Both the position numbers and the translations under genes were made by a program. 64,000 bases of DNA from Candidatus Poribacteria bacterium (GTDB lineage Bacteria; Poribacteria; WGA-4E; WGA-3G): the NCBI GenBank assembly GCA_965205025.1, contig CBDBFU010000032.1, positions 64,001-128,000 on the forward strand. Reading direction: 5' to 3'. The notes beneath the pieces are model-generated. The model was given only the letters and a program-made list of their open reading frames with translations. It ran no database searches and was not told the origin of the DNA. Below, piece by piece: positions 3,017 through 28,998 of the stretch (the first letter of the stretch is position 1; each line of letters begins with the position of its first letter).

Positions 3017-3131
3017 CATGTTTTACACACTACCCTGGTGCCTCTGGTCTCTAATACCATATTCAATTGATACTCTTACATTATGATTTAAGTGAAACAA
3101 AAACAATCATATACAGATTTATTAGTCCCGT

Positions 3132-3248
3132 ATGAAGTTAAAAAAATAAAATAGGTAATTTGGACCCAGAGCTGGTAGGTGCGGTTTCCTAACCGCACCG
3201 GATTCTACAAGAAACTGGAAATTACCCGAATAAATTCTTTAACTTCAT
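3132..3248. mobile_element. 117-bp non-autonomous element with bipartite TIRs (ATGAAGTTAAA-N11-GGTAATTT) and an internal GTAG REP hairpin
   Basis: Identical except for 1 nt to 28540-28656. Interrupts GTCCC-GTA-GGGA with the T duplicated. Confidence 0.9.
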
Positions 3249-3312
3249 TAGGGAGGAAAGGTCTATAGAAAAAGGTATATCAACATCCTGCACTCCAGCG
3301 GAGTGCTATGTA

Positions 3313-3428
3313 ATACCATTTCTATTTAAATAGTTCACATTATGAATACTCTTAGTAGTCCCCCTGATAAGGGGGATTTAGGGGGTCTCTTTAAGTTAAT
3401 AATGGGCGATAATTATTTAGAATGGTAT
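3313..3428. mobile_element. MITE with ATACCATT(T)CTA TIRs carrying a CCCCCTGATAAGGGGGATTTAGGGGG repeat
   Basis: ATACCATTTCTA at 3313 and TAGAATGGTAT ending at 3428. The same ends occur at 27131/27562, 27591/27705 and 57767/57878. Confidence 0.7.
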
Positions 3429-3539
3429 AAGTAGATAGGTGGCAACTTCAGTTAAATTAAGAGCAGCTATACAGAAGTACATCAGGATATCATAACAAAA
3501 GCATCCATGATGAACATAAAAAATTCAATTCAACTATAG

Positions 3540-5513
3540 ATGGAATCCTCAGTAGATAATTTTACACAACAAAATAGAATAAGAGATTTTGGCGTCACAT
3601 GGCGTGCCATAGTAATCGCTATCTTCCTAATTCCACCAAATGTGTTTTGGGTAATTGAAGTAGAGTGTGTTTGGCATTCAGGACATCCTACCACGATTTC
3701 TCTGTTTTGGAACGTTGTCCTGAATATATTTTTCCTTATCCTCATCAATCTTTTCATAAAGAAAGTAGCCCCAAACTCCGCATTAAAACAGGGAGAGTTG
3801 ATTACTATTTATGCCATGCTATCAATCGCATCTGGTTTAGCCGGACACGATATGTTAGCACTAACTATCCCTGCCCTCCCACATGCATTTTGGTTTGCAA
3901 CCATAGAAAATGACTGGGCGGATACTTTTCATGCATACATTCCACAACATCTTGTCGTTTCCGATAAAGAGATTATTCGAGGCTTCTATGAGGGAGATAC
4001 ACCCTTTTATAACCTACAAGTAGGTGGGGCATGGATCATGCCAACCTTATGGTGGACATCCTTTATTTTGGCTTTGGGTGTAATCATGATCTGTATCAAT
4101 GTGCTTGTTCGAAAACAGTGGACTGAACATGAAAAACTGGCATATCCTATCATCCAACTCCCTATGGCAATTACTGAAGGAGGTGGCAGAGCACAACTCT
4201 TTAAGAATCGGATCTTGTGGTACGGTTTTATCATTGCAGCAGTCGTGAATATATGGCACGGATTAGCACACTTCTTTCCAATATTACCAGACTTTAGTGT
4301 CCGGCATAATTCCCGAAATTGGGGAGCATTCTTCACAGAAAAACCGTGGAATGCTGTTGGAAATATACCTGTTCCACTCTACCCTTTTGTCATCGGGTTA
4401 GGATTCTTATTACCACTTGATCTCTCATTCTCATTATGGTTCTTTTATCTGTTTGAAAAGATACAACGGGTTATGGGGAGTGCTCTTGGAATACCTGCTC
4501 CCTTCCCATATAGTAGCGAACAATCCATTGGTGGATGGATGGCTATCTTTCTCATTGCATTAATCGTCACACGCAAACATATTATGAATGTCATACGGAC
4601 GATCTTCGGGATGAAGGGCGGAATTGACGATTCCGATGAACCAATTCGGTACAGAACAGCATTCTTGTTAATTGCCATTGCCAGCCTATACATAATATGG
4701 TTCTGCATAAAAGCGGGGATGACATTACCCATAATCCTTCCGTTTTTCGGTTTCTTCTATGCAATTTCTATCGCTATAACCCGTGTCAGGGCAGAACTGG
4801 GTCCACCGGCTCATGAAATGGCTGGTATGTGTAACGCTCAACAATTCTTAGTTAATATACTGGGTACACGCCGTATCGGTCCTAACAATCTTACTGTATT
4901 CCCATATTTTTGGTTCTTTAGTGGTAGAGGATACCGTGAACATATAATGCCACATCAACTTGAGGCATTTAAGATGGCTGAGCGAGCAAATATGAATACA
5001 AAGAGATTGGTATTTGCTATGATTATTGCCGTCGTTCTCGGTTCACTTTCCGCTTTTTGGGCAACTCTATCTGAACTCTATCGTCTTGGTGGCGCGGTAA
5101 CGGGGGCAGGGGGTGGAATCGGACCCTCAGTTGGACATATCGGTCAATTTGGTTGGTTAGCAGGATTATTTGCTTTCCCACGAGACCCAAATGTACCGGC
5201 TATGAGTTTTATGGCTGGAGGAATGGGAGTTACATTCCTCCTAATGTTTATGAGAATGCGCTTTATTTGGTGGCCCCTACACCCAGCCGGATACCCTATA
5301 TCAATGACATTTGGGGTAGGATATTTTTGGAGTTGTTTGGTAATTAGTACTTTTCTTAAATGGATGGCGTTAAGATTTGGTGGTCCTACAACATATCGAA
5401 AGATGGTATTCTTCTTCTTTGGTGTAATTCTGGGAGAATATTGTGTAGGAGCATTCTGGAGTGTCTTAAGTGTTATTATACGCGAACCTATATACGATTT
5501 TGCACCGGGGTAA
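3540..5513 (+). CDS. Polytopic membrane protein, DUF6785/DUF6784-type (putative OPT-like transporter)
   Basis: 657 aa with many TM segments and motifs RKQWTEHEKLAYP, RVRAELG and WWPLHPAGY. The family assignment is by recognition, not a search. Confidence 0.7.
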   Translation: MESSVDNFTQQNRIRDFGVTWRAIVIAIFLIPPNVFWVIEVECVWHSGHPTTISLFWNVVLNIFFLILINLFIKKVAPNSALKQGELITIYAMLSIASGLAGHDMLALTIPALPHAFWFATIENDWADTFHAYIPQHLVVSDKEIIRGFYEGDTPFYNLQVGGAWIMPTLWWTSFILALGVIMICINVLVRKQWTEHEKLAYPIIQLPMAITEGGGRAQLFKNRILWYGFIIAAVVNIWHGLAHFFPILPDFSVRHNSRNWGAFFTEKPWNAVGNIPVPLYPFVIGLGFLLPLDLSFSLWFFYLFEKIQRVMGSALGIPAPFPYSSEQSIGGWMAIFLIALIVTRKHIMNVIRTIFGMKGGIDDSDEPIRYRTAFLLIAIASLYIIWFCIKAGMTLPIILPFFGFFYAISIAITRVRAELGPPAHEMAGMCNAQQFLVNILGTRRIGPNNLTVFPYFWFFSGRGYREHIMPHQLEAFKMAERANMNTKRLVFAMIIAVVLGSLSAFWATLSELYRLGGAVTGAGGGIGPSVGHIGQFGWLAGLFAFPRDPNVPAMSFMAGGMGVTFLLMFMRMRFIWWPLHPAGYPISMTFGVGYFWSCLVISTFLKWMALRFGGPTTYRKMVFFFFGVILGEYCVGAFWSVLSVIIREPIYDFAPG

Positions 5514-5519
5514 AACAAA

Positions 5520-6578
5520 ATGAAATTGACTTACTTCTTTCTATCTATATTGATGATTAGTTTAATCCTATCACATACAACTTTTGCTGCGGATGAAGGA
5601 GCACATGCAGCAGAATTCCTCAGCCACGGTGTCGGGGCAAGAGCACTCGGTATGGGAAGTGCATTTGTTGCTATCGCAGATGATTCCACCGCAACATACT
5701 GGAATCCTGCTGGACTGACAGATGTCGAAAACCACAGTTTTTCAGCTATGTATTCCGATACATTTGGATCCAGTGATGGCAGTTTTATTACAAATGGTCT
5801 CGTCAATTATAACTTTGTAAACTACGTTCACCAAATTGAAGATATAGGGAGTCTCGGCATTAGTTGGATTCGACTCGGTGTCGATGATATTCCACGGACA
5901 ACATTTATTGATATCGACAACAACGGAAAACTCGGGGATTATCAGGATATTAATGGAAATGGAGTAAAAGATACAGGTGAGCCTTACATTGATAGACCTA
6001 CAGTTGCAGGATATTTCAGTAATACAGATAACGCTCTTTTGATCTCTTATGCACGCAATATACAATCTGCAATCTCCGTTGGTGGAAGCGTGAAACTTCT
6101 AAAACAATCAATATTCGATTATAGTGGCAGCGGCTTCGGTATCGACTTAGGTTTTATATTTACCCCATATAAAGGACTAAGATTGGGGACAATGTTACTC
6201 GATGCAACTGGAACTCAAATTCGATGGGATACTGCTGACAATCCAATTTTCACACGCGGAAGAAGAATTAGAGTCGGTGGAGCATATCAATTTGCTTTCA
6301 ATCGATTGGGGAACGGATCTATCAGTGCTGATATCGAAACTGACCAAGCTGATTATACTGAAGGTACAGACTCAGGGGGTGGCATTATCTATCGAACTGG
6401 TGCGGAATTTTGGTTGTTTAACACCCTCGCATTACGGACTGGCTGGAACGGACAAGGTCTATCAATAGGATCTGGTTTACAGTTAAGAATCAGTAGTATG
6501 ACCTTCTTTGTAGATTATGCCTTTAATTCACATACCCTCGGCGGGTCACAACGCATCTCAGTCTCTGGACAATTCTAA
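5520..6578 (+). CDS. PorV/PorQ-like (FadL superfamily) outer-membrane beta-barrel protein
   Basis: Signal peptide, GARALGMGSAFVAIADDSTATYWNPAGL motif and C-terminal Phe. Confidence 0.8.
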   Translation: MKLTYFFLSILMISLILSHTTFAADEGAHAAEFLSHGVGARALGMGSAFVAIADDSTATYWNPAGLTDVENHSFSAMYSDTFGSSDGSFITNGLVNYNFVNYVHQIEDIGSLGISWIRLGVDDIPRTTFIDIDNNGKLGDYQDINGNGVKDTGEPYIDRPTVAGYFSNTDNALLISYARNIQSAISVGGSVKLLKQSIFDYSGSGFGIDLGFIFTPYKGLRLGTMLLDATGTQIRWDTADNPIFTRGRRIRVGGAYQFAFNRLGNGSISADIETDQADYTEGTDSGGGIIYRTGAEFWLFNTLALRTGWNGQGLSIGSGLQLRISSMTFFVDYAFNSHTLGGSQRISVSGQF

Positions 6579-6580
6579 TT

Positions 6581-6880
6581 GAGTCCCGTAGGGACGGAAT
6601 GTTTATAGAATAACTTGAAAATAAATAACTATTTCCTAATGCCAATAATGTAAACTAATCAATTAGAGTTGGTAATAGTTACATTTCTGTCTGTAATACA
6701 CACATAATTTACTTAAAGAAAATATTTCAATGTTAAGTATTAGAAGCCCCAGCGGGGCGAAATGTTTGTAGAAAACGTACTGAACCACTAAACCTAAGCC
6801 CAGGTGAATGCCATAAGGCATTCATACCGTTGATTTGCGGGGCGACATGTGTATCGCTCAAACTATCCAAACTATAGTTT
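6581..6880 (+). repeat. Intergenic cluster of REP-like hairpins (GTCCCGTAGGGAC, GCCCCAGCGGGGC x2, one interrupted by the 35-bp module)
   Basis: Hairpins at about 6581, 6746 and 6798. Region 6624-6672 recurs at 46022-46070. The tail TATCCAAACTATAGT matches the end of the 63745-63966 element. Confidence 0.85.
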
Positions 6881-6975
6881 AATTATCAAACTCACGTTAA
6901 AAATATATAGAATGGTATCAAATGAAAACAAAAGATGCATTTCTTCCACACTTAAGTTATATGTATATTAATATA

Positions 6976-7119
6976 TGTGATTCACGGAGAATTGGTATAA
7001 TTAAAATTATAAATCCTTATAGAATAAGGGTTCGTAAAATTGCTCCGTGAAGGTTTCCGTGAAAGTGCAATCATCTCACAACAATAAATATTAACACTTT
7101 TTACATTCACAACGCACCC
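6976..7119. repeat. ~145-bp dispersed repeat, second copy at 28737-28883
   Basis: Both copies share TGTGATTCACGGAGAA...CTTATAGAATAAGG.TTCGTAAAATTGCTCCGTGAAGGTTTCCGTGAAAGTG...ACCC. Confidence 0.85.
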
Positions 7120-7135
7120 AGGTAGTTAAATTAAC

Positions 7136-7164
7136 TTGACTATTACTGTTAGATTCTATATACT
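7136..7164 (+). promoter_or_regulatory. Putative sigma70 promoter for the reductase gene
   Basis: TTGACT-N17-TATACT about 130 bp upstream of the ATG at 7293. Confidence 0.6.
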
Positions 7165-7292
7165 TTTCTATTTAATGATACTATTCATAAATTATTTAGA
7201 AACTAACCGTATTAAGCAGTTAATTATCAATTAAGACAAAGAAACTTTCCTATACAACCTTAACTGAATATTAAGGCAATAAGGAGTAAAGA

Positions 7293-9741
7293 ATGGCTAT
7301 TGAGAGCGCGGGAGCTTATGATGTATCTGTTATCCCACCAGATGTTGCTCGCGAAATTGAAATATATGAAATCAGACTTGGCCGCGCACAAGCAGGTCAA
7401 GGAGAGGAAAAAATCTGGACGGAATTTAGACTTCGTCATGGGGTCTATGGGCAACGTGATGATAGATCACAGATGATACGGGTAAAAATTCCATTCGGTG
7501 GACTTACCGCAGACCAACTTGAAATGTTAGCCGATGTCGCTGAAGAATTTTCCGATAATATCATTCACATTACAACACGACAAGATGTTCAATACCATTA
7601 TGTAGATATCAATCACACACCAGAACTCATGAGACGCCTGGCAAGTGTAGGTATTACAACCAAGGAAGCCTGTGGAAATGTCGTACGAAACGTTACAGCA
7701 TGTCCATTAAGTGGTGTGTGTCATGATGAATCTTTCGATGTCACCCCTTATTCAAAAGCTCTTTCCGCATTTCTATTGGGACATGAGGATGCAAAAGATT
7801 TTGGACGTAAATTCAAAATTGCATTTTCCGGTTGTGAAGAACACCCTTGCGGATTGGCAAATATGCACGACATCGGGGCAGTTGCAGCTGTAAAAGAGGT
7901 TGATGGGGAAGTTAAGAAGGGCTTTAAACTTTATGTTGGTGGTGGTCTTGGCGCTGTCCCACATCAAGCTAAAATCTTTGATGAATTTCTTCCAGCAGAA
8001 GAACTCCTTCCTATTTCTCAATCCATTTGTAGAGTTTTCACAAGATTAGGTGAACGAAAAAATCGGAATAAGGCACGTTTGAAATTTGTCATTGCTAAAT
8101 ACGGTATTGAAGAATTCCGTAAACTTGTCCTCGAAGATAGAGAAACATTAAGATATGACCCCGCTTGGACAGAATACCTTGATAATCTGGATGCCTATGA
8201 TGAAACACCCCTTAAACCACCTACACAACTCAACGGCGCATCAAATCCTGAAGGGTTTGATGAGTGGTATCAATCAAATGTTCGTTTACAACGTCAACCC
8301 GGTTATGCCTATGTAACGATTACACTTCCCCTGGGGGATCTAACTGCAGACCAAACCAGATCTTTAGCTGACATTTCACGTAAGTATGTAAAAGATACAA
8401 TACGTGCTACTGTTGAACAGAACATTGTACTACGATGGGTTACAATGACAGATCTACCCGCACTTTATAAAGAACTAACAGAGGTTGGTTTGGGTGATCC
8501 GGGGGCTGAATCCCTTGTGGATATTACCGCATGTCCCGGGACTGATTCATGTAAACTTGGAGTATCTTCTTCTCGTGGATTGGCTGGCACACCTCCGTGG
8601 ACATTTCATTGAAACTGGACATAAAGAAGATATAAAAGATTTCCGTATTAAGATAAGTGGATGTCCTAATTCCTGCGGACAACACCATATCGCAAATATT
8701 GGTTTCTTCGGTTCATCAAGGCGAATTGGTGAACATATTGCTCCGTACTATCAAGTTCTACTCGGTGGACACATGATTGAGAATGCCAGTTCCTATGGAC
8801 TTGCCACAGGAAAAATACACGGGAAGTATATTCCAGATTTCATTGAAGAATTAACAGGTAAATATTCTGATGAGAAGAATGGAGAAGAAACCTTTACTGA
8901 TTACGTCGCACGTCTCGGTAAAGCCGAAATCAAGCAAATCTTATCAAAGTATGATAAAATTCCTACTTATGAAGAAGCACCTGAATTCTATGTAGACACC
9001 GGTGACACCAAAGATTACCAACTCAAAACAGGTGTCGGTGAGTGTGCAGGAGAAGTCGTCGCACTTGTCTCTATGAAGTTAGATGAAGCCGATCGGTTAA
9101 TATATGAATCCGGTTTAGACTTAGAAAAAGGTGATTATCAAAAATCCGCTGAACTGGCTTTTAGTGCAATGATTAGAGCTGCAGATGGACTGCTAACGAC
9201 GGTTGGATTGCAATATATTGATGATGGAACAACCGTGAATGAATTCCGCACACACTTCTTTGAAGCTGGTAACTTCTTCCCAGGTTATGGGGGCACATAT
9301 ATTCAAGGCAACGGAAGAGGATGCATCTACATTTAACCAAGAATTGTCACACCGTCGTGTTGAGGAAGCCACTCTCTTTGTGGAAGAATCGCATAACGTG
9401 TACAATCGTATGCGGATTAAACAGGAAGAAGAGGAAGCAAGTCGGAAAAAGTCACGAAAATCCCGTACTGCAGCTAAACCGAAAGTCGTTAAAGAAACAA
9501 AGAAGGTTGAAGAAATCACTGACAGCCTTGATCTCAAAGGTGTTGCCTGTCCCTTCAACTATGTTTCAGGCTAAGGTACGGTTAGAGACTATGGATGTCG
9601 GTCAACTATTAGAAATCACCATTGACGATGGTGAACCAATTGAGAATGTACCCGTCAGTCTCTCTAATGACGGTCATGAAAATACTTGATACAAAGAAAA
9701 TTGGAAAACACTATCGTCTGACAATTAAAAAAGGTGAATAG
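7293..9741 (+). CDS. Siroheme [4Fe-4S] nitrite/sulfite reductase with a C-terminal TusA/SirA-like domain; four apparent +1 frameshifts
   Basis: HITTRQDVQ, RKFKIAFSGC, TACPGTDSCKLG, KISGCPNSCGQH and the TusA motif LDLKGVACPFNYV. One continuous protein is restored by removing single bases near 8586, 9290, 9565 and 9680. Confidence 0.85.
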
Positions 9742-9777
9742 TTCACTTTTGTTGGAGATTTATTCTAAACCAATTTC

Positions 9778-9820
9778 AAGCGATTACCTACTAATGAAAT
9801 AGATAGGTAATCGCTTTCTT
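9778..9820 (+). terminator. Putative intrinsic terminator
   Basis: AAGCGATTACCTA...TAGGTAATCGCTT 13-bp stem followed by TCTT, just after the reductase stop. Confidence 0.65.
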
Positions 9821-9976
9821 CATGAAAATACGAAATGCTAAAAAGCGTTGGATTTCCAGAATAACAAATTCCTAATGCATGAATTATTCATTCATGTCTT
9901 ATATAGTTTCTCTCCCTTGAAATATATCTATATATAAGATAAACTAATACTTAATACAAAACAAACTGAGGAAATT

Positions 9977-10852
9977 ATGCAAGATAACCAAGATTCAATC
10001 ACTCAGAATAATAATGAAACACCAACACTGAATTTGCAACCGATGCAATTATCAGACATACTTGACGGAATGTTTACGTTGTATAGGAATCATATTCGTC
10101 TCTATATTCATATTGTTGTCGTATTCTTCGCAATATCTTATGTTACAGATAAATTGTTAGTGTTTTCTCTACTAAACTCCGTGTCAGCAGGGAATTTTGG
10201 CGCGGTATTTTTATTATCCACCGTATCCATATTGTTATCCTTATATATCGTTGCGGTCTTGTCTTATGCGACAGCACATGTCTTTTTAGGACAAAACATC
10301 TCCACTGGAAATGCATTTTTACATACTTTGCGTCTATTTGCAAAATACCTTGTATGTGGTATAATCTATTTCTTAGTACTTGGTGGATTATCTATTACTA
10401 TAATCGGTATTCCTTTTGCTATTTATTTCTTTATTCGATGGGGATACTATACACTACCTCTTTTGTTAGAAGAAAAAACGATTATGGGTTCATTAAAACG
10501 GAGTTCGGAATTGGTAAAAGGAACTTGGTTACGAGTATTTGGTATTACGATTCTTATTATTCTTATTGTTCAAATGATTCAGACCATATTTTCTACATCT
10601 ATAGGTATGGTCTTCTCCTTAATTCCTGCAGCTTATGAAATACAGGACGTTAGCATTATTGAAAACTTAAGAAGATTATTCGCTCCATCACCTGTAGATA
10701 TCGGTTGGCCAATTTATTTGATACGAAGCTTTATTACAATGGGAATTCATTCAATCCTATTGCCAATTGCCTCAATCGGTGGAACGTTACTATATTTCGA
10801 CTTACGTATCCGAAAAGATGCGTATGACCTTGAAATGCAGGTTACAAATTAG
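9977..10852 (+). CDS. Integral membrane protein of MoxR-associated operons (GDPD membrane-domain-like)
   Basis: Multiple TM segments with SLKRSSELVKGTWLR and LLYFDLRIRKDAYDLE. First gene of the DUF4129-DUF4350-MoxR-DUF58 cluster. Confidence 0.7.
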   Translation: MQDNQDSITQNNNETPTLNLQPMQLSDILDGMFTLYRNHIRLYIHIVVVFFAISYVTDKLLVFSLLNSVSAGNFGAVFLLSTVSILLSLYIVAVLSYATAHVFLGQNISTGNAFLHTLRLFAKYLVCGIIYFLVLGGLSITIIGIPFAIYFFIRWGYYTLPLLLEEKTIMGSLKRSSELVKGTWLRVFGITILIILIVQMIQTIFSTSIGMVFSLIPAAYEIQDVSIIENLRRLFAPSPVDIGWPIYLIRSFITMGIHSILLPIASIGGTLLYFDLRIRKDAYDLEMQVTN

Positions 10853-10883
10853 GAAGTTATCTCACAGGACATTATTACTAAGA

Positions 10884-12070
10884 ATGGAAAACCCTAAACC
10901 CACCAAACTTCCTTCTTTAATCCTTTCCCTCTATAAGGATAATATTGGCTTGTTTCTACGAATCATGCTACCTGTCGTTATCATAGCAATTATCCTTAAT
11001 ATCTTCGTATATTACTTGCATGTCAGTATGGTTGAACAGATTAACCCAGTACTACAAAGAACTATTGGGAATAGTCCTTCTCAATCTGATGAAAATAATC
11101 TTGATCAACAAGAAAACAGTGTATCAGTAAGGTTAAATACCAATGGAGGAATATCTCCTTTTCCTTCCGCACTCTACAAAGAATTCTCTTCTAACAAAGT
11201 AAAATATAATTGGACTCCTAATCATATAGAATCAACTGATCGCACACCTATATTTTGGCAAATATTACCTTATCCCATTGATAGGAAATATGAATGATTC
11301 AGTTGGTTGGAGTTGGTCAATCTCCTTTAGAACAATAGAATACACCCCTCTAATTCTTCTCATCTTCACCTTATGTCCACTATCAATCGTTGTAGCTTTT
11401 CAAATACAGACTTCAAATATAGATCAACCTGCAGGAATATCTCCACTGACAGCGCGTTCTGTATGGAAATATACAAGTAGTAGAGCACTGAAAGTATTAA
11501 TTATACCAATACTATTTATAGTAATTACCGAATTAAGTCGACATATCTATTTGTTGATTTCATTATTATTTCCAAGGCTACCCGTCTCTTACGATGGAAT
11601 ACCACTTGTACTTTTACACATGTTTGTTAATATCTATTTTCTGGTAACTCTAAGTCTTTATAATCAATGTATAATGTTCGAGAATAGGTCAATAATAGAT
11701 ATCTTCAAGAGGAGTCATTCACTTGTCAGAGGTGTGAGATTGAAGTATCTATCAATTTACTTACTGACTGCAGGGGGTAGCTGCCATCGTATCCTCAGTT
11801 CTTATGGGTTCTGCATTATTTGTTCTGTCTTTCTTCTTTACCGAACTTGCTCCAATTCAAGATGCATTAACACCACTCAAATTTCTGTCTCTCTTTACTG
11901 GTGGTGATGTCGCGGTAATGCTACCGGATAAGCTGGATATACTTCCTACAGTTTCAATTCTAATAGTTAGTGGCATTATTTCTACACTAATAGTTCCACT
12001 CTGGGCGATAGTTACCACACATTTATATAATGAGAGAATAGGTATGAAACCAAAGGTTATTGATGCATAA
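10884..12070 (+). CDS. Paralogous membrane protein, split by two apparent +1 frameshifts
   Basis: Three overlapping ORF pieces. IFKRSHSLVRG and HLYNER parallel motifs in the upstream gene. Joins are near 11280 and 11775. Confidence 0.6.
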
Positions 12071-12708
12071 TGAGAGTAAGATTTCAGTATACAAGCTATG
12101 TTATAATAATTCTTCTAAGCTTACACTTTAATATTCACGCTGTTTCTCAAGAAAAAACACAGTATGATGAATTTAGATATACACAATCAAATCATAAAGT
12201 ATCCTATGATAAATACCATAAGGAACTAATGAAAATTCTGGAACCTGATCCAGGATTTTCTTTTAACATTGATTACATCATCCTCCCAATTGCAGTTATA
12301 GCCATAGGTATAGTTGTACTATATTTTGTAAGACAGATTCGGATGAATTATATCTTTGAAGCAAGAAACGAGGAAACCGATCCACAGGATGACAATGTGG
12401 AGACAGAAAAGAGTGCACTTGATCGTGCAGAAACAGCAATTGAAGCAAACGATTTTCGAGGAGCACTGAGATTCCTATATATCTCTGCTGTTCTACACTT
12501 ACAGGAATGTGGTATTCTCCCGTATGACAAGAGTATTACAAATCGTGAATACTTACAATTGGCACACACAGATCTTGATCTACAAGAGACATTAGCACCT
12601 ATAATAACAATCTTTGATGAGGTCTGGTACGGATATAAACATTGCGATGAACACACGGTAGAGAATTTTCGTGATACTTTGAAAGCAGTTTATGCAAGAA
12701 GTTCATAA
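12070..12708 (+). CDS. DUF4129 domain protein
   Basis: AIEANDFRGALRFLY...SITNREY...FDEVWYG pattern and operon context. Confidence 0.8.
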   Translation: MRVRFQYTSYVIIILLSLHFNIHAVSQEKTQYDEFRYTQSNHKVSYDKYHKELMKILEPDPGFSFNIDYIILPIAVIAIGIVVLYFVRQIRMNYIFEARNEETDPQDDNVETEKSALDRAETAIEANDFRGALRFLYISAVLHLQECGILPYDKSITNREYLQLAHTDLDLQETLAPIITIFDEVWYGYKHCDEHTVENFRDTLKAVYARSS

Positions 12709-20908: not shown

Positions 20909-20927
20909 TAATATTCCTTGTAACATC

Positions 20928-21977
20928 TTACTTCATTGTAAAAACAACGCCTAAAGCATCAGCGGGTGTTTCAATCAATTTGTCACACCCATCTGCAGCG
21001 TTGTCAATTGGAAGTAAATCAGTAATTAAATGTCCAACATTGATTTTACCTTCAGACATCAATCTAAGGGATAATTCTAAGTTGCGTTGAGTTGGCCACG
21101 GCACAAAAACCGGTGGATAGTCAGCGCCGTGTTCATAATCCTCATCGTGATATCCTGGACCTGTGCGTGCAGCACTGATAACATCAACGTTTCCAAGTCC
21201 TGCTGCAAACCCGTGTGTAATACTGGCACCACCGACAATGACGATTCGACCCATTTTGTGTGTATCGGGTGCTGTCTTTAACATTGCACGAATCTGTTGA
21301 AATGCACCGCTGGCATCTCCCCCGAAGGCGATGATTCCACAATCCATGCCGTATCCTCTCGTGAATTCAGCTGCAATTGGAATCGGATCTGTTTCAGACA
21401 CATTTATTGCTTTGTCTACACCTGCATTTTTGGCAATCTCTAACCGTAATGCAAAATTATCTAAACCGATGACATACGCACCTGCAATTTTTGCGATCTG
21501 ACATGCGAATTGTCCAACGATACCCAAACCTGCTACCACAACATTCTCTCCGATCCGTATCCGTCCACGTTGAACTGCATGGAGTGCTGTTGCTGCAAGG
21601 TGGATGGATGCGGCGTGTTCGTCCTTAACGTTTTCTGGAATCTTCGCACAAAGGTTATGGGGAACACACGCATAGGTTGCATGTAATGCGTAACCTCCTC
21701 CCATGCCTGCCACTCTGTCCCCGATCTCAAATTCATCACAATCTCCCTCTTTACCGATAACAACCCCCGCATTAGTATATCCGAAGGGTCGCTTATTTTC
21801 AGGAGATCCCGGGTTCTCTCGTCTTCTTTTCATCCCACCCAATTCCGTCCCTGGACTCACCATCGATGCGTGGACTTCAATTAGTAATTGTCCCGGTTTT
21901 GGATTAGGTGTTTCCTGTTCCTCTGTTGTAATATAACCGGCATCGTTCCGCATCACAACTTTTCTGATTTTACTCAT
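20928..21977 (-). CDS. MDR-family (zinc-binding type) dehydrogenase
   Basis: SPGTE, GYTNAGVV...GDRV and Rossmann motif VAGLGIVG. Confidence 0.85.
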   Translation of the reverse strand: MSKIRKVVMRNDAGYITTEEQETPNPKPGQLLIEVHASMVSPGTELGGMKRRRENPGSPENKRPFGYTNAGVVIGKEGDCDEFEIGDRVAGMGGGYALHATYACVPHNLCAKIPENVKDEHAASIHLAATALHAVQRGRIRIGENVVVAGLGIVGQFACQIAKIAGAYVIGLDNFALRLEIAKNAGVDKAINVSETDPIPIAAEFTRGYGMDCGIIAFGGDASGAFQQIRAMLKTAPDTHKMGRIVIVGGASITHGFAAGLGNVDVISAARTGPGYHDEDYEHGADYPPVFVPWPTQRNLELSLRLMSEGKINVGHLITDLLPIDNAADGCDKLIETPADALGVVFTMK

Positions 21978-22016
21978 TTCTGTTACCTTTATAGCAGTAG
22001 TATCAATTCTTATCGT

Positions 22017-22045
22017 ATTTTATTCTATTTCTGATTTAGTGTCAA
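22017..22045 (-). promoter_or_regulatory. Putative sigma70 promoter
   Basis: TTGACA-N17-TAAAAT on the minus strand, 40 bp upstream of 21977. Confidence 0.65.
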
Positions 22046-22061
22046 ATCATGAAGGTGGTAA

Positions 22062-22362
22062 GGGTGTGTAAAGTAATTGTCACTTTATTTAACACCAATG
22101 ATATCTCAATTCCAATTCATCCAGTCTGAATTTCGAGATTTACAGCTTATTCTTTGCTACTATAATTTTGACAATTCTATTTCAAGGGTAACTGAGAATC
22201 TAATGATAAGTCTATTTTTTGGAGTTTTCTATATCAAAAATACCGTACTCCAGCGGGGTACTATGTGTCTATAGAAAACAATATCGGAACAATCTGGCAC
22301 TCCAGCGGAGTGCTATGTCCTAATCCACTATGAATGTTTAGTGACAAATACTATACATACCC
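22062..22362. mobile_element. 301-bp MITE with GGGTGTGTAAAGT...TACATACCC TIRs and a 9-bp TSD (IS256-like ends)
   Basis: Imperfect ~23-bp TIRs. AGGTGGTAA is duplicated at 22053-22061 and 22363-22371. Contains two GYACTCCAGCGG hairpins. Confidence 0.85.
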
Positions 22363-22436
22363 AGGTGGTAAGTTTAAAATTAGTCCCTCATTGTTCCAAC
22401 GGAATGTTTATAGCAAAAGTGTCTATCCCAATAATT

Positions 22437-22630
22437 GAGTCGCGGGGAATGCCAAAAGGCATTCCCCGGTGAATGTCTAATGAGGATTAAGTAAATATTT
22501 CGGTAATCCAGTCCATAAACTTATCGTAGGGGCGGGGTTAACCCGCCCGTATATTACCGAATTAATAAATTAATCTTCATATGTCATTCATTCCGTTGAT
22601 TTCTTGATTTGGTAGGGACGAAATGTCTAT
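22437..22630. mobile_element. Nested composite: GTCCC/GGGAC-type hairpin > 35-bp modules > 101-bp ATGAGG-TIR element (22480-22580) > GTAG REP
   Basis: TIRs ATGAGGATTAA-N11-GGTAAT and ATTACC-N11-TTAATCTTCAT. Internal GTAGGGGCGGGGTTAACCCGCCC at 22526. Confidence 0.85.
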
Positions 22631-22942
22631 AATATAATATCAAAATCCGTGAAAACAACAAATACAATCCGTTAACTAGCGCAAGTCGTTAATTAGTTTT
22701 GTTAAAGTTGCACCGAAGATAGTATATGATATATGAGTATCCACTTATTTGGTGTTTTTTGTGTGATAATTATGAGAAAGGTGATACAATTAACAACTAC
22801 AATTATCTTGATATATTGTAGGTTTTCTATAGTACATCACATCGTATATGTAGTCCGGCACACTCAAATATCGACGCATTTATGTTCTTTTCCCAGTTGA
22901 AAAGGACTGAAATCAGTCCAACCTATAAGGAAGATAGCATCA

Positions 22943-23134
22943 GTGAGATTTTTAGAGAAAAAAGCTGCTTTGCGTAAGCAAAGGACATTCTGGCGCATGA
23001 TTAGACTAATTCTGTTTATTGTGTGCGTATTTTTTGCAATCTATCTGACTATAACTCTAAACAAGTTAAAAATAGAGCATAAAGATTACACAGATATCCC
23101 TACACCAACACACGAATTCATCCCTGACCGTTAA
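22943..23134 (+). CDS. Small hypothetical single-TM protein
   Basis: 63 aa, AAGGAAG upstream, basic N-terminus followed by a hydrophobic helix. Confidence 0.45.
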   Translation: MRFLEKKAALRKQRTFWRMIRLILFIVCVFFAIYLTITLNKLKIEHKDYTDIPTPTHEFIPDR

Positions 23135-23286
23135 CGTTATAATTTTGACGAGGTTGAAATGAAAAAAGTTTCTGTTCACTCACAATTTAGACAAACTGAT
23201 CAACAATCATCCACTTGCAAAAGACTACCACATAAATGAGATCAGTATCACCCTCAATAACATAAAGTTTGAAATAAGGAGGACAA

Positions 23287-23418
23287 ATGGATTTACGTAA
23301 GTTACGGGAAAACTCAGATTCGGAACTCCAGCAGTTTAAAAGAAATATGAAAGCTTATGCTCGGTTCTTTAGCACTTTGCTTACCATATTTTCTATCGCT
23401 ATGCTAATTTTCCTATAG
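23287..23418 (+). CDS. Small hypothetical 43-aa protein with a C-terminal TM helix (below the ORF-track cutoff)
   Basis: Strong AAGGAGG RBS 4 nt before the ATG. Translation MDLRKLRENSDSELQQFKRNMKAYARFFSTLLTIFSIAMLIFL. Confidence 0.55.
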   Translation: MDLRKLRENSDSELQQFKRNMKAYARFFSTLLTIFSIAMLIFL

Positions 23419-23460
23419 TTTTGAAAGAGAACACATCAAATTTATACAAAATTTAGGAGA

Positions 23461-24168
23461 TTGATCCTGATGAAAAATCAACGAAACGTACCAAGACATA
23501 TTGTGATAGGAACAATTTGCCTTGTAATGATGGGTTGCTTAACATTGTACTTTGTTTTTTATCGATCTCAGCTAAACGTTGATCCAATAAAAAAGTATAA
23601 CACTATTACCATTACACAAAAAGATTCTGTTGAAACAATTGAAAAATCTGTATCATCAGCATCGGATACTGCAGATACAGAAGGTATCAAGGAAACTTTG
23701 AGTAAAGCAGAAACTGTCGTCATGTCAACTTCCGAAAACTCCAGTAATGTAGCCTTTCCAGTTGATGAGAACCGACAGATTAAGTCCGAACAAGATTCAC
23801 AGAAAAGCGTAGCAGTCTCTACTAAATATGCAGAAAATATGAGGATCCTGATGGAAGCAATGGAGACTCTAAAGAAGGCAGATGACACCCTAGCACGACA
23901 TAAACAATTCATGGAAATTCTAGACACGGTACCTATCTCCCAACACCAAGGAAAATTACCTGAGAATGTAGTCGAAGATCTACTTAATCAACTTGTCCCC
24001 AATTTGGTTGAGGAATTGAACACACTTTCTGCAACAGAACAACGCGAACTTATTACCCAGTTGCGACCATTGATGAAAACAATGGTTGAAGCGCAAACCC
24101 AGGAGTCCGATTCAGCCGATGTTCTCTTAAAAATGCTTCGTGCTCATGGGTTTGAACCGAAGTTTTGA
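23461..24168 (+). CDS. Hypothetical N-terminally anchored helical protein
   Basis: AGGAG RBS, one TM segment, a low-complexity linker and a helical C-terminus. Confidence 0.65.
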   Translation: MILMKNQRNVPRHIVIGTICLVMMGCLTLYFVFYRSQLNVDPIKKYNTITITQKDSVETIEKSVSSASDTADTEGIKETLSKAETVVMSTSENSSNVAFPVDENRQIKSEQDSQKSVAVSTKYAENMRILMEAMETLKKADDTLARHKQFMEILDTVPISQHQGKLPENVVEDLLNQLVPNLVEELNTLSATEQRELITQLRPLMKTMVEAQTQESDSADVLLKMLRAHGFEPKF

Positions 24169-24346
24169 GAATGGAGGTTGCTTGAAAATATGACTGAAGA
24201 TCCAGAGTTCAAGAAAGAAGTACAATCCTTGCTGTCAGATACATTTCGTGAGTAGTTGTTTGTTTTTACAAAGTTTACGGCGTGAAGGTTTCTCATTCCT
24301 TCACACCACTCTCAATATATTAGGCATTATAACGGAGTAAATTGTA

Positions 24347-24620
24347 ATACCATTTCCAATTGATTAATTTACATTATGACTTAAGTAAAACTGGGATAAT
24401 CATATACAGATATATGAGTCCCGGGGTAGGTATTGAGTCCCATAGGGACGGAATGTTTATAGCAAAGGTGTATAGCCCCATAATTGAGTCCCGGGGAATA
24501 CCTAAATAGCATTCATACCGTTGATTCCTTGATTCGAGGGACGGAATGTTTATAGAAATCGTTATCACCATTATACCAAGCCTAGCGGGGCAAAAGGTGT
24601 ATCCCTAAATTGACGCCTAT
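24347..24620 (+). repeat. Composite hairpin-repeat cluster homologous to 27131-27389 and 3054-3130
   Basis: Shared ATACCATTT.CAATTGA start, GAGTCCC...GGGACGGAATGTTTATAG units and AAAGGTGTATCCCTAAATTGACGCCTATA end. Confidence 0.85.
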
Positions 24621-24654
24621 ATCTATTATTGAAACAACCCAACCAAGTCGTAAT

Positions 24655-27119
24655 TTATCTTTTATCGTTAGATATAACAGTTTCCCTAAACCAACACCGC
24701 CTCCCATCAGTTTTCAAAATAATCGCACCGAGTTGGTCCGTACGGAGTTGAATACAGTTCCGATCCTGATACCGAGAAACAACATCTGCATGTGGAAATT
24801 GATACCGATTCCCTTTACCCAGAGAATAGATAGCATAACGTGGTTGAACCGCATCCAAAAATTCTGCAGTACTTGACGTCCTACTTCCATGATGCGGAAC
24901 CTTTATTATTTCTGACCTTAGATCTTGTTGAGATGTCAATATACGTTTTTCAGCATTGGCTTCTATATCTCCACTAAACAATATATCCACCAAACCGTAG
25001 CTAACTTTCAACACCAATGAATCGTCATTCTTATCATCATCTATAAGATTTGTCTCATCTGCATCTATTGGGTGGAGTAGAGAAAGCGTTGCAGAAGGCG
25101 TGAATTCTATTTTCCCAGCATAGGGATAGGAATACGGTAGTTTTTGGGTTTTTGCAATGTTCCGTAGACGATTATGTGTTGATGAATCCAGTTCCATATC
25201 CGGAATTCCAATGAAATGTTTAACATTATAGTTTTGTAGTATGTAAGCAAGGCCACCACCATGGTCTAAATCCGGAATGTGTTAGCATAACCATATCAAC
25301 ACGTCTGATATTCTCAGAATCAAGATAGGGTTCAATTATCCGTTTACCTACATCATACTCCACTTCACGTTTCTTCTTTTCATTATAATAGGCATGTTGG
25401 ATACCCCCATCTACCAGCATAACCTGTTTATCAGGAAACCTGATAACTGCGGCATCACCTTGACCAACATCCAAAGTGGTTATTTCTAAGAGTCTACCCT
25501 CTTCTTTAAATCCTCTATCCCACACCCAGATTGTCAGAATTGATAATCCGATAAGACTCGCTATCCTCCACTGTTCATATAGATAACGCCACTGTGTAGC
25601 ACATATACATATCACGATGTAAATAAAGATAAGACCTATCGTTGGTGGAGCAATCTTTACTATCCCCCAATCTTGTCCAAATAGACTTATGAGTTTGAGG
25701 AATATATGCATAATAATCTGATTTATTATCCCTAACAATTTCGCTAATGGTAGCCAAATAAACCCAACACACACAGATGCCATTCCAACACCAACAATTA
25801 ATGACACAAGACCAACAGCAAACGGACCGACAATTATACCTAAGGGGTATGTTCTATAAAAATGGTAAGCGATAAGAGGAGAAGTGCCAATTTGTGCTGC
25901 CAAGGTTACCAGATAGGACAATACCAACCATTTTACTGCCGATCTTCTCATTTTTTGAAAATGGGTATACTCCACAGACTCCTCTGTATCCCAGAACTTT
26001 CGGAACGGTTTCTCCATTTTAGATACAAAGAATACAATTGCAGCAACCGCAACAAAAGAGAGTTGAAAACCTACATCCCATAACTGAGTAGGATTAATTA
26101 AAAGCAATACCAGTGCAGCAACCGCAAGTAAATTGTAAATATCCGCGTCCCTGTCAATAATTGTTGCAAACAGAAACAAGATCGCCATTAACGATGCACG
26201 AAATACTGAAGGACGAAAACCGACTAAACTCGCATAGAGAATTACACCTAAAATTGTTAGAAGACATACCATCTTTTTCGGCATCCGAAATATTGACAGT
26301 CCAAGGTAACAAAACAGTGCTATAAGACCTACATGTAATCCTGACACTGCAAGAACATGGAATGTTCCACTGTTCCGAAACATATCCAATGTTTCTGTCG
26401 GTACATCTCCTCGTTTTCCAAGTAGAATGCCTTTTAAGAGTTGAGCATGGAGTGATATTTCATTTTTAGGTGATGTATCCTGTTTTGAATAAGCATAATC
26501 AATAATCCGTTCTGTTCGAAAACGTAGTGATTCTATCCATCGTAATGGTAGGAATCCCGATTGTTTTCCAATTTGTAGTAATCCTTGGTGTTGGATAATT
26601 CCAGTTACATTTTGGCGTTCGAGATATGCTCGGTAATCAAACCCTCCAGGATTCCGTTTTGATTGGGGTTGCTGTAATACACCTGTTATAGTCAGATGTT
26701 TCCCGTATCGTAGTGAAACCAGATCTTGAAATCTTATTAAGCACTTAGCAGACACAGATTTGGTAGGATCAGATAATAGCTGAATCTTACCTACAGCATA
26801 GCATGCATCCCATGATTCTCCCCGTTCAGGTTGATAAACAGTTTTCCCTGTAAAACTGATCGGTTGTTCATAGAAGTTATCTGGTATTGATGGAACTGTT
26901 GCAACATCTAAACGCAACATACCACTGGCAAACACAGCAATATGTAAAAGTGTATAACAGATGTATTTTGATCGTTTTCTGGTGAAGATGCAACCCATCA
27001 GAAGTATCAGTACGGAAACCCAAATCCATAATAATGGAATTGATGTATACTCACCAGTGATGATACCTAAAATGAATGGAATAAGAAAAAAATAAGGCAG
27101 GACGAGACTTGAATGTCAT
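24655..27119 (-). CDS. comEC: DNA internalization competence protein ComEC/Rec2; two apparent +1 frameshifts (near 27090 and 25276)
   Basis: RNPGGFDY, HVLAVSGLHVG, GFQLSF, LDVGQGDA, restored THPDLDHGGG and KVPHHGSRTSS. Confidence 0.9.
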
Positions 27120-27130
27120 TGATAAATGTA

Positions 27131-27562
27131 ATACCATTTTCAATTGATACACTTACGATTTAAGTGAAATAGGAACAATCATATATAGATTTATGAGTCC
27201 CGTAGGGACGAAATGTCTATAGAAAACGGGTTTATCCACTATCTTGAGTCCCATAGGGACGGAATGTTTATAGAAGTCAATATCACCAATACCCTAAGCC
27301 CCAGAGGGGCGAAAGGTTTGTAGAAAACGGTGAACCCACCAAACAAGCCCCAGCGGGGCGAAAGGTGTATCCCTAAATTGACGCCTATAGTGCGGTGAAT
27401 CAACGGTATGAATGCCATAAGGCATTCCCCGGGAAACCGCACCTACCGGGTTTGGGAAAAATAGAATTACCGAAATATTTACTTAATCCTCATCCAGTTT
27501 GTGCGGTATTTCAAGACATGTTTAACAACTGTTCATGAGATAAACATTTATAGAAATGGTAT
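27131..27562. mobile_element. 432-bp ATACCA-TIR composite MITE loaded with hairpin repeats, a module-interrupted REP and one end of an ATGAGG element
   Basis: ATACCATTTTCA...TAGAAATGGTAT ends. Hairpins at ~50-bp period (27195, 27246, 27298, 27347). 27466-27493 is the exact reverse complement of 22480-22507. Confidence 0.75.
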
Positions 27563-27590
27563 AAGTAAATAGGTGGCAACCTGAGTTATT

Positions 27591-27705
27591 ATACCATTTC
27601 TAATTGAAAATGTCTCTTTTTTGTACCACAAACTTTCAGTTTGTGACCTGAAAAATGACTACCATAATAACCGGTTAATGAGACAATAATCTATAGAAAT
27701 GGTAT
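27591..27705. mobile_element. 115-bp MITE with perfect 12-bp TIR ATACCATTTCTA
   Basis: ATACCATTTCTA...TAGAAATGGTAT with an internal CACAAACT-TTC-AGTTTGTG hairpin. Confidence 0.8.
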
Positions 27706-27748
27706 TATATTATTTGATATGATAAATATCAACTTTAACCTTGTAATA

Positions 27749-28998
27749 GGGTGTGTAAAGTTATTGGCATTAAAAGACATTAAATGAAACGGATCAAACA
27801 TTTTAATTAAAAAAATGAAGAAAACACCCATTTCTAACAACTAACATATATATATCACAATAATATAAAAATATTTGTCAAAATGAAAATAAAATTGTAT
27901 ACTACTATATCGTTCAATATTTGTAAACAAAAAATAAAGAACAAAGAACTAAAAACTAATGGCTATCTATAAAAACGATCCTAATTACGAAATATTATAT
28001 ACGTCAAAAAAGCATACCTTTATAACCGTTAGGAATGCCAAATTCAGAAAGTACAACAAAAACACAAAATCACACTTTTTCGAATTTCTTATAAATCAAG
28101 TTCAAACTGGAATAAAGCCAGTCTATGACAGGGGTTACAGGGGTAATTTACACCAATTTCAATGTCACACCGTGTGACAAAAAGTGTAACTTTTTTCATT
28201 TTTTCGACGCATAGAGAAATGCAATAACAACACGATCTACTGTCTGAGTATTTAGGATTAAATAGCTGATTTTACACGTTATTTTATGTCTGTATATTAG
28301 GATTAAATGTCCGTTTTTATACCTTTTTGACAATCAGAAATATCAGTTATTAAAGAGTATTCTCAAGACAAATATATGCCAATTATATATAAAGACTAAA
28401 TTGGACAATTCTAATTCAGAGGAAACTGAGTATCTAATGATAAATCTATTTTTTATTCAGTTTTGTATATCAAAAATACCGTACTCCAGCGGAGTACTAT
28501 GTCTATAGAAAACAATATGGGAACAGTCTGGCACTCCAGATGAAGTTAAAAAAATAAAATAGGTAATTTGGACCCAGAGCTGGTAGGTGCGGTTTCCTAA
28601 CCGCACCAGATTCTACAAGAAACTGGAAATTACCCGAATAAATTCTTTAACTTCATGCGGAGTGCTATGTGCCAATACACTTCGTATGAAAAACATATAA
28701 GTACTTAATACACACCTAAGTTATAGTGTAATTAACGGGTGTGATTCACGGAGAACTGGTCTACTTTAAATTATAAACCCTTATAGAATAAGGCTTCGTA
28801 AAATTGCTCCGTGAAGGTTTCCGTGAAAGTGTAAAAAATTCAAGACGACAAATATTAACAGTTTTTTACAATACACAGTACCCATAGATCTAACATATAT
28901 GGAATTGAGAGAAATACTAAAGATGCTACTTGAGATAAATATTAGTATTCCAAGTACGATAGCAGCGTAATGTTTAGTGACAAAAACTTTACATACCC
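27749..28998. mobile_element. ~1.25-kb non-coding element with the same GGGTGTGTAAAGT/ACTTTACATACCC ends as the 22062 MITE, containing nested elements
   Basis: Terminal matches are present and 28421-28670 is homologous to 22186-22320. Contains the 117-bp element and the 145-bp repeat. The TSD is only degenerate. Confidence 0.65.
28540..28656. mobile_element. Second copy of the 117-bp ATGAAG-TIR element
   Basis: Interrupts GCACTCC-AGC-GGAGTGC with the G duplicated. The empty homologous site is at 22297-22313. Confidence 0.9.

Follow-up and report, generated by a model that had tools for sequence, protein, structure and literature searches.

According to PMC2170065, IS630/Tc1-mariner elements insert almost exclusively at TA dinucleotides and duplicate the TA, and TA targeting is treated there as universal in the IS630/Tc1/mariner superfamily. 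Insertion inside repetitive palindromes has been documented for five IS families, IS3, IS110, IS4, IS256 and IS5 (Tobes and Pareja, PMC1525189), a survey that contains no mention of IS630. Within this group of elements, IS1397 inserts specifically into REPs (PMC3184786). In vitro, RAG1/2 directs strand transfer preferentially to a few nucleotides at hairpin or cruciform tips, with an efficiency that depends on the tip sequence (PMC1618415).

Here we analyze a group of short elements in a 64,000-nucleotide stretch of the genome of a sponge symbiont, a Candidatus Poribacteria bacterium (contig CBDBFU010000032.1, positions 64,001 to 128,000; the window). A sequence-only reading of the window had described four copies, lying in hairpin loops and accompanied by an apparent 1-bp duplication. 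All four are present, and a BLAST search with five subfamily representatives found no further copies in the window. The elements are very probably MITEs (see below) and are listed as such with their sites, where a caret marks the insertion point.

3126 to 3131, no strand: left half of a target hairpin, with the TCCC arm at 3126-3129, loop base G at 3130 and the duplicated T at 3131
3132 to 3248, no strand: MITE of 117 bp with 28-bp bipartite TIRs and an internal GTAG-tagged hairpin, GTGCGGTT-TCCT-AACCGCAC
3249 to 3254, no strand: right half of the target hairpin, with the duplicated T at 3249, loop base A at 3250 and the GGGA arm at 3251-3254
22297 to 22313, no strand: related empty site GCACTCC-AGC-GGAGTGC, in about 50 nt of similar context
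22480 to 22580, no strand: MITE of 101 bp, of a subfamily with the internal hairpin GGGCGGGGTTAACCCGCCC; its host site GAATGTC-TA^AT-GTCATTC is the hairpin of the 35-bp module
27392 to 27493 (left limit approximate), minus strand: truncated MITE with one 28-bp TIR at 27466-27493, adjoining CCAGTTTGTGC
28540 to 28656, no strand: MITE of 117 bp in GCACTCC-A[G]C-GGAGTGC, with G at 28539 and 28657 and arms at 28531-28537 and 28659-28665
57823 to 57843, no strand: related empty hairpin GCACAAACT-GGA-AGTTTATGC

The two 117-bp copies are 99% identical. The copy at 3132-3248 has T at 3131 and 3249 within TCCC-GTA-GGGA, and its target half at 3126-3131 is a degenerate version of GAGTCCC-GTA-GGGAC, a REP associated with RAYT. 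For the copy at 28540-28656, the empty homologue at 22297-22313 that the sequence-only reading had pointed out is real: when the two are aligned, the empty site is shorter by 118 bases, that is 117 + 1, and the genome has 21 occurrences of the restored site and none of the unrestored form. At 22480-22580 an A stands on either side, and a 1-bp duplication there is unproven because it is ambiguous for the TA^AT hairpin class. The CCAGTTTGTGC beside the truncated MITE is half of a CACAAACT hairpin, and the internal hairpin of this MITE holds a 35-bp module; the far side of the MITE is missing, cut off where an IS4-like element ends (AAATTGACGCCTA, 27377-27391). The empty copy reported at 57823-57843 also exists.

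The TIRs are 28 bp long and bipartite, and their pattern ATGARGNTNAA-N11-GGTAAT matches seven ends in the window and none in each of 100 shuffles. Searching the whole genome (5.66 Mb) and related assemblies, as had been suggested, we recovered 266 ends here (254 with the strict pattern), which pair into 88 complete elements, and found the elements again in other Poribacteria. The MITEs range from 99 to 150 bp, with length classes of 101, 113, 115, 117 and 144. Long copies with the same ends enclosing an ORF were also found: the partner is a 1241-bp IS with 28-bp TIRs and one 384-aa ORF that lies elsewhere in the genome; as stated earlier, the enzyme is absent from the window. Its seven full copies, of which five are identical and the rest have 1-3 differences, each contain an intact 384-385-aa ORF. 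MITE ends are identical to the IS TIR (ATGAAGATTAATTTTTTAATTCGGTAA) or differ from it by one mismatch, and the 28-bp TIRs are the sole sequence common to the MITEs and the IS. The short elements are small, non-coding and multi-copy, and both their TIRs and their target rule are those of an autonomous IS; we conclude with good confidence that they are MITEs, non-autonomous derivatives of the 1241-bp IS, which presumably mobilizes them.

The partner enzyme is an IS630/Tc1-mariner-family DDE transposase. It scores 181.7 bits against NCBIfam NF033545 (IS630 family; cut-off 100), Pfam detects DDE_3 (PF13358, E = 1.4e-22) and HTH_32/29/23, and the AF2 model (pLDDT 92.4) finds Mos1 mariner complexes as its best PDB folds, with E about 1e-10. 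In a 76-sequence alignment, no variation is seen at D191 or D273, and conservation at E334 is 90% or more; based on motif resemblance, we take these three to be the catalytic residues. Like ISY100, IS630 and Mos1, to whose family it is matched by NCBIfam, Pfam and fold, the element combines DDE_3 and HTH domains with a D-D-E/D triad and is a TIR-bounded, single-ORF IS of ~1.2 kb that spawns MITEs, and its two N-terminal HTH regions fit the bipartite TIRs. Unlike these relatives, it shows no TA duplication, and the second D is separated from E by 60 residues (DD60E), an atypical spacing compared with the canonical value of about 34-37. The ~28-aa insertion between these two residues is also present in a subfamily of 36-44%-identical relatives. 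Given its family, the element is an ordinary DDE IS by descent and represents no new enzyme class.

We found identical bases on the two sides of 72 of the 88 elements, with two unpaired nucleotides per side before a perfect stem, so that these insertions fall on the middle base of a 3-nt loop. Stems of at least 6 bp flank 79/88 sites, compared with 0.7% of 20,000 random positions, and stems of at least 5 bp flank 83/88, compared with 2.7% of 20,000. Loops of 3 nt receive these 72 of 88 insertions but account for only 901 of the 5071 empty genome hairpins with a stem of at least 7 bp. The 72 sites whose 6-bp stem is perfect have 20 distinct 6-nt arms between them. By class, 43/88 sites are in CRCAAWCT hairpins, 20/88 in GAATGNC modules and 13 in other or unique palindromes; with 63/88 sites in just two hairpin families, some sequence preference is possible. 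All seven full IS copies are in palindromes, six of them in GAATGNC modules. Three insertions in GGAA/TTCC 4-nt loops are off-centre and have a 1-bp duplication, and one off-centre site, GTGCGGTT-A^GA-AACCGCAC, has none. It is highly probable that insertion occurs on the dyad axis of short palindromes, typically with a 7-9-bp stem and a 3-nt spacer, whatever their sequence. This agrees with the earlier view that symmetry rather than sequence unites the targets, as do the different hairpin families used in other genomes. As for the proposal that targets are chosen by their structure, the common dyad symmetry is observed, and on sequence grounds it suggests that structure rather than sequence is being read.

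The same base is present on both sides of 83/88 elements, compared with 26% (0.263) by chance, and all four bases are duplicated (A 32, T 27, C 15, G 9). TA..TA flanks were found at 0/88 elements; two other IS630 families in the same genome, which serve as an internal control, end TA...TA as the family rule prescribes. The restored site, with one base removed, was found elsewhere in the genome for 48/88 elements, compared with 8/88 for the unrestored form, and 20 different restored xNy loop triplets are used. These results extend to the whole genome the duplication of the central base noticed in the window. We looked for an orthologous empty site in the closest relatives (91% and 86% identity), where the repeat-bearing intergenic regions are absent or rearranged, and found none; the evidence for the duplication therefore comes from related (paralogous) empty sites. 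In GAATGNC hairpins, 17 sites have the sequence TA^AT or AT^TA. For all 17, the one-base-removed form has 0 occurrences; three flank variants, covering five of these sites, have copies elsewhere in the unrestored form (seven each), and a census of this hairpin class showed no TAT or ATA loops. They may reflect blunt insertion into TAAT, or the loss of one base from a TAAAT loop. A better wording of the rule is that the element inserts on the dyad axis: odd spacers yield a 1-bp duplication, and perfect or even palindromes yield none.

In four other Candidatus Poribacteria assemblies, 44/54 IS copies have the same configuration, but in hairpins of other families, among them GTAG-REPs whose 3-nt loops vary and CCCCCCTT-ATC-AAGGGGGG. 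A genome of the same order but another family has 3/3 copies in palindromes. Among metagenomic distant relatives (39-51% identity to P0125), 10/41 have palindromic flanks of at least 6 bp, and the same flanking base is found in 10/41, no commoner than chance. One relative has many copies within the same wider repeat context. Taken together, the clade very likely departs from the TA rule of characterised IS630/Tc1-mariner members through dyad-axis insertion and 1-bp duplication. No such description was found in literature on IS630 with palindrome, stem-loop or REP targeting or with IS1397, as covered by titles and abstract openings with ISfinder and TnCentral outside the scope; phrases for a 1-bp target site duplication gave no occurrence, and no transposon paper, among the matches listed.

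The most likely mechanism is that the transpososome would capture the palindrome as a hairpin or cruciform, with each transposon 3'-OH attacking the apex of one hairpin loop. Since the central base of a 3-nt spacer is duplicated, the strand transfers appear to be staggered by one nucleotide, and they would occur 5' of the central base on each strand; in a perfect or even palindrome, the element sits at the centre without duplication. The ~28-residue insertion that creates DD60E is a candidate structure reader. An unlikely but serious alternative concerns the form of the target: instead of an extruded cruciform in duplex DNA, it would be a hairpin that folds while the DNA is single-stranded, during transcription or at a replication fork, or else the transposase would melt a duplex and refold it. 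A 7-9-bp stem is short for a cruciform to extrude spontaneously, and the hairpin-using IS200/IS605 elements and integron attC sites act on single strands, both of which favour this alternative, but the two ends of a DDE cut-and-paste element require two target strands.

We consider it improbable that what the transposase reads is the sequence of a few repeat families, in the manner of IS1397 and IS110-family elements at REPs, and that dyad symmetry is incidental. Such recognition would fit the predominance of CRCAAWCT and GAATGNC sites, the latter holding most full IS copies, and the use of GAATGNC hairpins at TA^AT-type loops only, though ATAA/TTAT loops are common (48 copies). Yet the 20 distinct arms, which include the 13 other or unique palindromes, the other hairpin families of other genomes, the junction on the dyad axis in every class and the use of loops with 20 different restored triplets all argue against it.

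It is very improbable that insertion is unselective or TA-like and that selection made the pattern, leaving survivors only in harmless intergenic hairpins. All observed copies are indeed intergenic, in repeat-rich regions missing from relatives, but survivorship provides no route to single-nucleotide precision at the loop centre (72/88) and explains neither the one-base duplication nor the lack of TA..TA flanks, and the identity of five of the seven IS copies indicates recent insertions. We give just as little weight to the idea that the flanking arms are longer TIRs of the element, or that hairpin and MITE were amplified as composite units from few independent insertions. An automatic TIR finder did run through the flanks in metagenome loci, and the relative with its shared repeat context is as such amplification would have it; however, identical IS copies bear different arms, empty hairpins are abundant (25-53 copies of common ones), both outer flanks are common to another site in just 4/88 cases, and five MITE length classes occur inside the same hairpin type. 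Least credible is a sequencing or assembly artefact behind the duplicated base. The +1 errors that the sequence-only reading noted elsewhere in this assembly would fit it, as would read data in the form of contigs that break at repeats, but the configuration recurs in at least five independent assemblies (among them OZ242381.1 and OZ251998.1, titled chromosome, and G026, listed as a single contig), the extra base is always the loop's central base, and all four bases occur.

Beyond dyad-axis insertion by this clade, we tentatively raise a broader reading, which is possible but open to doubt, that the whole IS630/Tc1-mariner subfamily with the ~28-residue insertion, DD(~60)E, has replaced TA recognition by structure-guided integration. 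Each end would then attack the hairpin tip at a constant spacing from the 3' arm, two nucleotides to its 5' side, giving +1 in 3-nt loops, 0 in 4-nt loops and perfect palindromes, and -1 in 5-nt loops. The habit would extend across phyla, given the palindromic flanks of 10/41 distant metagenomic relatives. The element termini are invariantly A...T, which in the same reading could be a fossil of an ancestral TA duplication. If this reading is true, the elements would naturally report, in vivo, where hairpins or cruciforms form in bacterial chromosomes, and they would bring to the most widely used transposon superfamily a mode of targeting that needs neither TA nor any particular sequence. Dyad-axis insertion itself, if true, would mean that target choice in the superfamily can be rewired from a dinucleotide to DNA structure, and would offer a tractable single-protein system for a DDE transpososome engaging non-B DNA. 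It would also help explain the nested small palindromic repeats in sponge-symbiont genomes, since each hairpin repeat would be a landing pad for the next element and nested layers would accumulate.

IS1397/ISKpn1 (IS3 family) and other REP-targeting IS elements also reside inside repetitive palindromes, but they are specific for one REP type, in contrast to the many unrelated stems used here. IS1397 inserts into the REP loop with a 3-4-bp duplication, and IS3 elements of this kind have a two-ORF frameshifted transposase; an IS3 identity is ruled out by the single-ORF IS630-family protein and the 1-bp duplication. IS110/IS1111 (DEDD, with an RNA-guided sequence-specific target) is ruled out by the DDE_3 transposase and the 20 distinct arms. 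RAG1/2 is likewise a DDE-type transposase drawn to hairpin tips, but it is a domesticated eukaryotic recombinase of another superfamily acting in vitro, whereas insertion into palindromes is here how a bacterial IS and its MITEs behave in nature. IS200/IS605 and REP/RAYT (REPIN) systems also use DNA hairpins; they have no TIRs, no duplication, subterminal hairpins and a Y1 HUH enzyme, and the 28-bp TIRs, 1-bp duplication and DDE partner rule out this identity. A GTAG-tagged REP-like hairpin lies inside the MITEs. Three RAYT-like Y1 transposase genes are also present in the genome, and the REPs on their flanks are different ones, GTCCC-GTA-GGGAC, which form one of the target classes here.

Across the genome that contains the window, an IS630-family DDE insertion sequence (IS) and its short non-autonomous derivatives (MITEs) occupy the dyad axis of diverse short palindromes and, where the spacer is 3 nt long, duplicate one base. 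The sequence-only reading had placed four copies in the window, and all of them are present, with the flanking bases and palindromes that it had described:

3132-3248: 117-bp MITE, 99% identical to the copy at 28540-28656
28540-28656: 117-bp MITE, 99% identical to the copy at 3132-3248
22480-22580: 101-bp MITE relative
27466-27493: truncated MITE, one 28-bp end, its other half lost beside the end of a different element (AAATTGACGCCTA at 27377-27391)

The end pattern matches seven times in the window and never in 100 shuffles. The empty homologue proposed at 22297-22313 is 118 (117+1) bases shorter than the filled site at 28540. An Rfam scan of window 21500-29500 gave no match at the gathering score.

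We interrogated the whole assembly (G000; 5.66 Mb, 33 contigs, ~38% G+C), in which the window is C32:64001-128000, for these ends. The strict pattern finds 254 ends, and a slightly relaxed one 266, which resolve into 88 complete elements (paired ends less than 1.7 kb apart) and 90 unpaired ends. The length classes are 101, 113, 115, 117 and 144 bp. Every class has the 28-bp bipartite TIRs and carries a GTAG-tagged hairpin inside; the 144-bp class corresponds to the 113-bp one with a ~35-bp hairpin module inserted into that hairpin. Insertion into palindrome loops, first noticed in the window, is genome-wide: a target stem of at least 5 bp is present at 83/88 sites versus 2.7% of 20,000 random positions, and one of at least 6 bp at 79/88 versus 0.7%. 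Hairpin-centre insertion is real, its statistical support is overwhelming, and it is seen again in other genomes. Twenty different arm sequences occur among the 72 sites whose 6-bp stem is perfect, and only 4 of the 88 have both outer flanks in common with another site, indicating that the insertions are largely independent.

Target classes of the 88 complete elements
CRCAAWCT hairpins: 43
GAATGNC modules: 20
CACCCC: 6
GTCCC REPs: 3
GTAG-REPs: 2
GCACTCC: 1
Other or unique palindromes: 13

Three-nucleotide loops are preferred: they received 72/88 insertions, yet just 901 of the genome's 5071 empty hairpins (stem at least 7 bp, loop 0-8 nt) have one; 801 of these hairpins have 4-nt loops. The CRCAAWCT hairpins house 43/81 MITE copies and none of the full IS copies, 6/7 of which are in GAATGNC modules. 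The MITEs' own internal REP (4-nt loops, ~165 copies) is hit only twice as a target.

The base flanking the element is identical on both sides in 83/88 elements, versus 0.263 expected from base composition, and is variable (A 32, T 27, C 15, G 9). At 72/88 sites, two unpaired nucleotides on each side separate a perfect stem from the element and the flanking base is the same, indicating a 3-nt loop whose central base is duplicated. Using a script that rebuilt the empty form of each of the 88 sites and counted it in the genome, we found the form with one base removed elsewhere for 48/88 sites (up to 53 copies), these empty sites being related (paralogous) rather than orthologous; the unreduced form is present elsewhere for 8/88, the form with two bases removed for 3/88 and that with AT added for 2/88. 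The 1-bp duplication first proposed for the window copies extends to the genome. That the duplicated base is an assembly artefact is excluded because the same pattern recurs in independent assemblies. GAAG...CTTC ends with an AT duplication would call for an AT form of the empty site, which only 2/88 sites have, while neither TG...CA ends with a TA duplication nor a 3-bp duplication fits the variable flanking base.

We also queried the nearest relatives, G004 and G018 among them, for orthologous empty sites with window 2700-3700, window 21500-29500 and loci L075, L077 and L103. No clean one was found, because in these genomes the intergenic stretches that carry the repeats are missing or have diverged. 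Between window 21500-29500 and G018:C32:39605-43416 (same genus), for instance, one intergenic region of 2.6 kb corresponds to ~317 bp and another of 1.9 kb to ~200 bp, and the excess consists of nested small repeats. Public sequencing runs were examined as Logan contigs, which break at these repeats; a contig joint from 28538 to 28657, skipping 118 bases, is present in 3/4 runs, but it probably comes from paralogous empty hairpins and so gives no independent support.

The eight sites whose unreduced empty form exists in the genome (vertical bar, insertion point) help to define the position of the junction:

GAATGCC-TA|AT-GGCATTC and its mirror
GAATGCTAA|ATAGCATTC, unreduced form in 81 copies
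GAATGCTAT|ATAGCATTC
One REP, GTGCGGTT-A|GA-AACCGCAC
One ambiguous REP site

Perfectly palindromic flanks with no duplication are also found in 5/42 copies in one relative (...GGTTTG|CAAACC...; L019, L034, L039, L060, L061) and in 2/3 copies in G026, a genome of the same order but another family (...CTGT|ACAG...; L096, L097). Together with the exceptions, these sites indicate that the junction lies on the dyad axis. Odd spacers yield one extra base, and even spacers or perfect palindromes yield none. The duplication is ambiguous at 17 sites of the GAATGNC hairpins that read TA|AT or AT|TA; the loops of these hairpins in the genome are TAT in no case, TAAT/ATTA in 7 and TAAAT/ATTTA in 54. In GGAA/TTCC loops, three insertions lie away from the centre and have a 1-bp duplication. 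The wider context of three perfect-palindrome IS copies is the usual TGG/CCA-loop REP, so that their loop bases look 'perfected'.

As the sequence-only reading held, the presumed mobilizing enzyme lies outside the window, which has no IS630 gene; the anticipated long copies with the same ends around an ORF are found elsewhere in the genome. A search for ATGA[AG]G...C[CT]TCAT pairs with palindromic flanks recovered six copies of a 1241-bp element encoding a 384-aa protein. Recent activity is suggested by the identity of five copies; there are also a seventh copy of 1244 bp, another at a contig end and two fragments. The MITE ends match the TIRs of this element, whose 7 full copies are all in palindromic targets. 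NCBIfam assigns the protein to the IS630 family (181.7 bits, cut-off 100), and Pfam finds DDE_3 and HTH domains. A PDB sequence search gave no match at E ≤1; the closest folds to its AF2 model (pLDDT 92.4) are Mos1 mariner transpososome chains (E ~1e-10). D191 and D273 do not vary, and E334 is almost invariant. [quoted passage not shown] The genome has two further IS630 families, both ending TA...TA. Among rejected partner candidates, two of 1590 bp, at C32:142925-144514 and C26:41879-43468, proved to be 115-bp MITEs with an IS4-like IS (PF01609) inside their internal hairpin, and C13:216409-218648 and C14:328753-331014 are each two solo ends around ordinary genes.

Reference genomes contain 59 loci of the IS, all titled Candidatus Poribacteria MAGs. 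We examined 55, leaving out the too-short L048 and the partial matches L064-L066; one lacks recognisable ends, and 44 of the remaining 54 have two unpaired nucleotides on each side and the same flanking base, in hairpin families other than those of G000. The empty REPs of one relative have assorted 3-nt loops. Within the phylum, the IS is present in 28/151 sampled genomes and 3/22 genera, and a search of the 151 genomes with the relative P0125 found the same IS clade only, with no distant relatives. Of the metagenomic relatives with 39-51% identity to P0125, 41 have both ends and flanks; as single copies, they have uncertain boundaries. In 10/41 the flanks are palindromic over at least 6 bp (for example AAAGACGCTA|..|TAGCGTCTTT and GCCTGCGGTTG|..|AAACCGCAGGC), and a common flanking base is not enriched among the 41. 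Several are flanked TA|TA or T|..|A, which would agree with an ordinary TA duplication if the ends are TG...CA. L151, L153, L171, L201, L214 and L216 read T|ATG...CAT|A, and L147, L148, L179, L212 and L218 read TA|ATG...CAT|TA. If the true ends are TG...CA, the former group would represent ordinary TA duplication, and the A...T that always terminates the poribacterial element could be what is left of it.

The TA rule of the IS630 family is documented for ISY100 (PMC2170065); in contrast to that TA target, the present elements use a dyad axis, and 0/88 have TA..TA flanks. REP-targeting is on record for the IS3, IS110, IS4, IS256 and IS5 families, and not for IS630, in PMC1525189. The finding is a new way of choosing targets inside a known transposon family. 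The palindrome would act as a hairpin or cruciform, each 3'-OH would attack the loop apex 5' of the central base, and the ~28-residue inserted loop of the enzyme may read the target structure. Transposition into hairpin or cruciform tips has an in vitro precedent in RAG1/2 (PMC1618415).

Window ~27950-28310 belongs to a dispersed repeat that matches many places in the genome and, at 75-86% identity, dozens in two relatives; it has no Rfam match and only a 72-aa ORF. A second hairpin-targeting family is the IS4-like IS (L001, G000:C32:142000-145500, at 958-2470), which encodes a 463-aa DDE_Tnp_1 protein and has the TIR TAGGCGTCAATTT. Short derivatives have the same ends; the family is also seen at window 27377-27391 and in copies of 335, 395 and 510 bp. 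The IS and its derivatives are located within the GTAG-REP hairpin of the MITEs, with the whole ~20-bp hairpin GTGCGGTTAGGAAACCGCAC repeated on either side. The ~35-bp hairpin module (AATCAACGGTATGAATGC...GCATTCCCCG) is at window 27400-27435, 1449-1468, 24502-24527 and 45964-45998; itself inserted in loops or stems of REP hairpins with a few bases replaced, it resembles a tiny mobile element that lacks TIRs. Three Y1-transposase (PF01797) genes, at G000:C27:72631-72975, 86996-87340 and 53137-53481 (L128-L130), are surrounded by arrays of the GAGTCCC-GTA-GGGACGGAATGTCTATAG repeat, direct upstream and inverted downstream, and look like a RAYT with its REPs. The window copy at 3132 is inserted in this REP.
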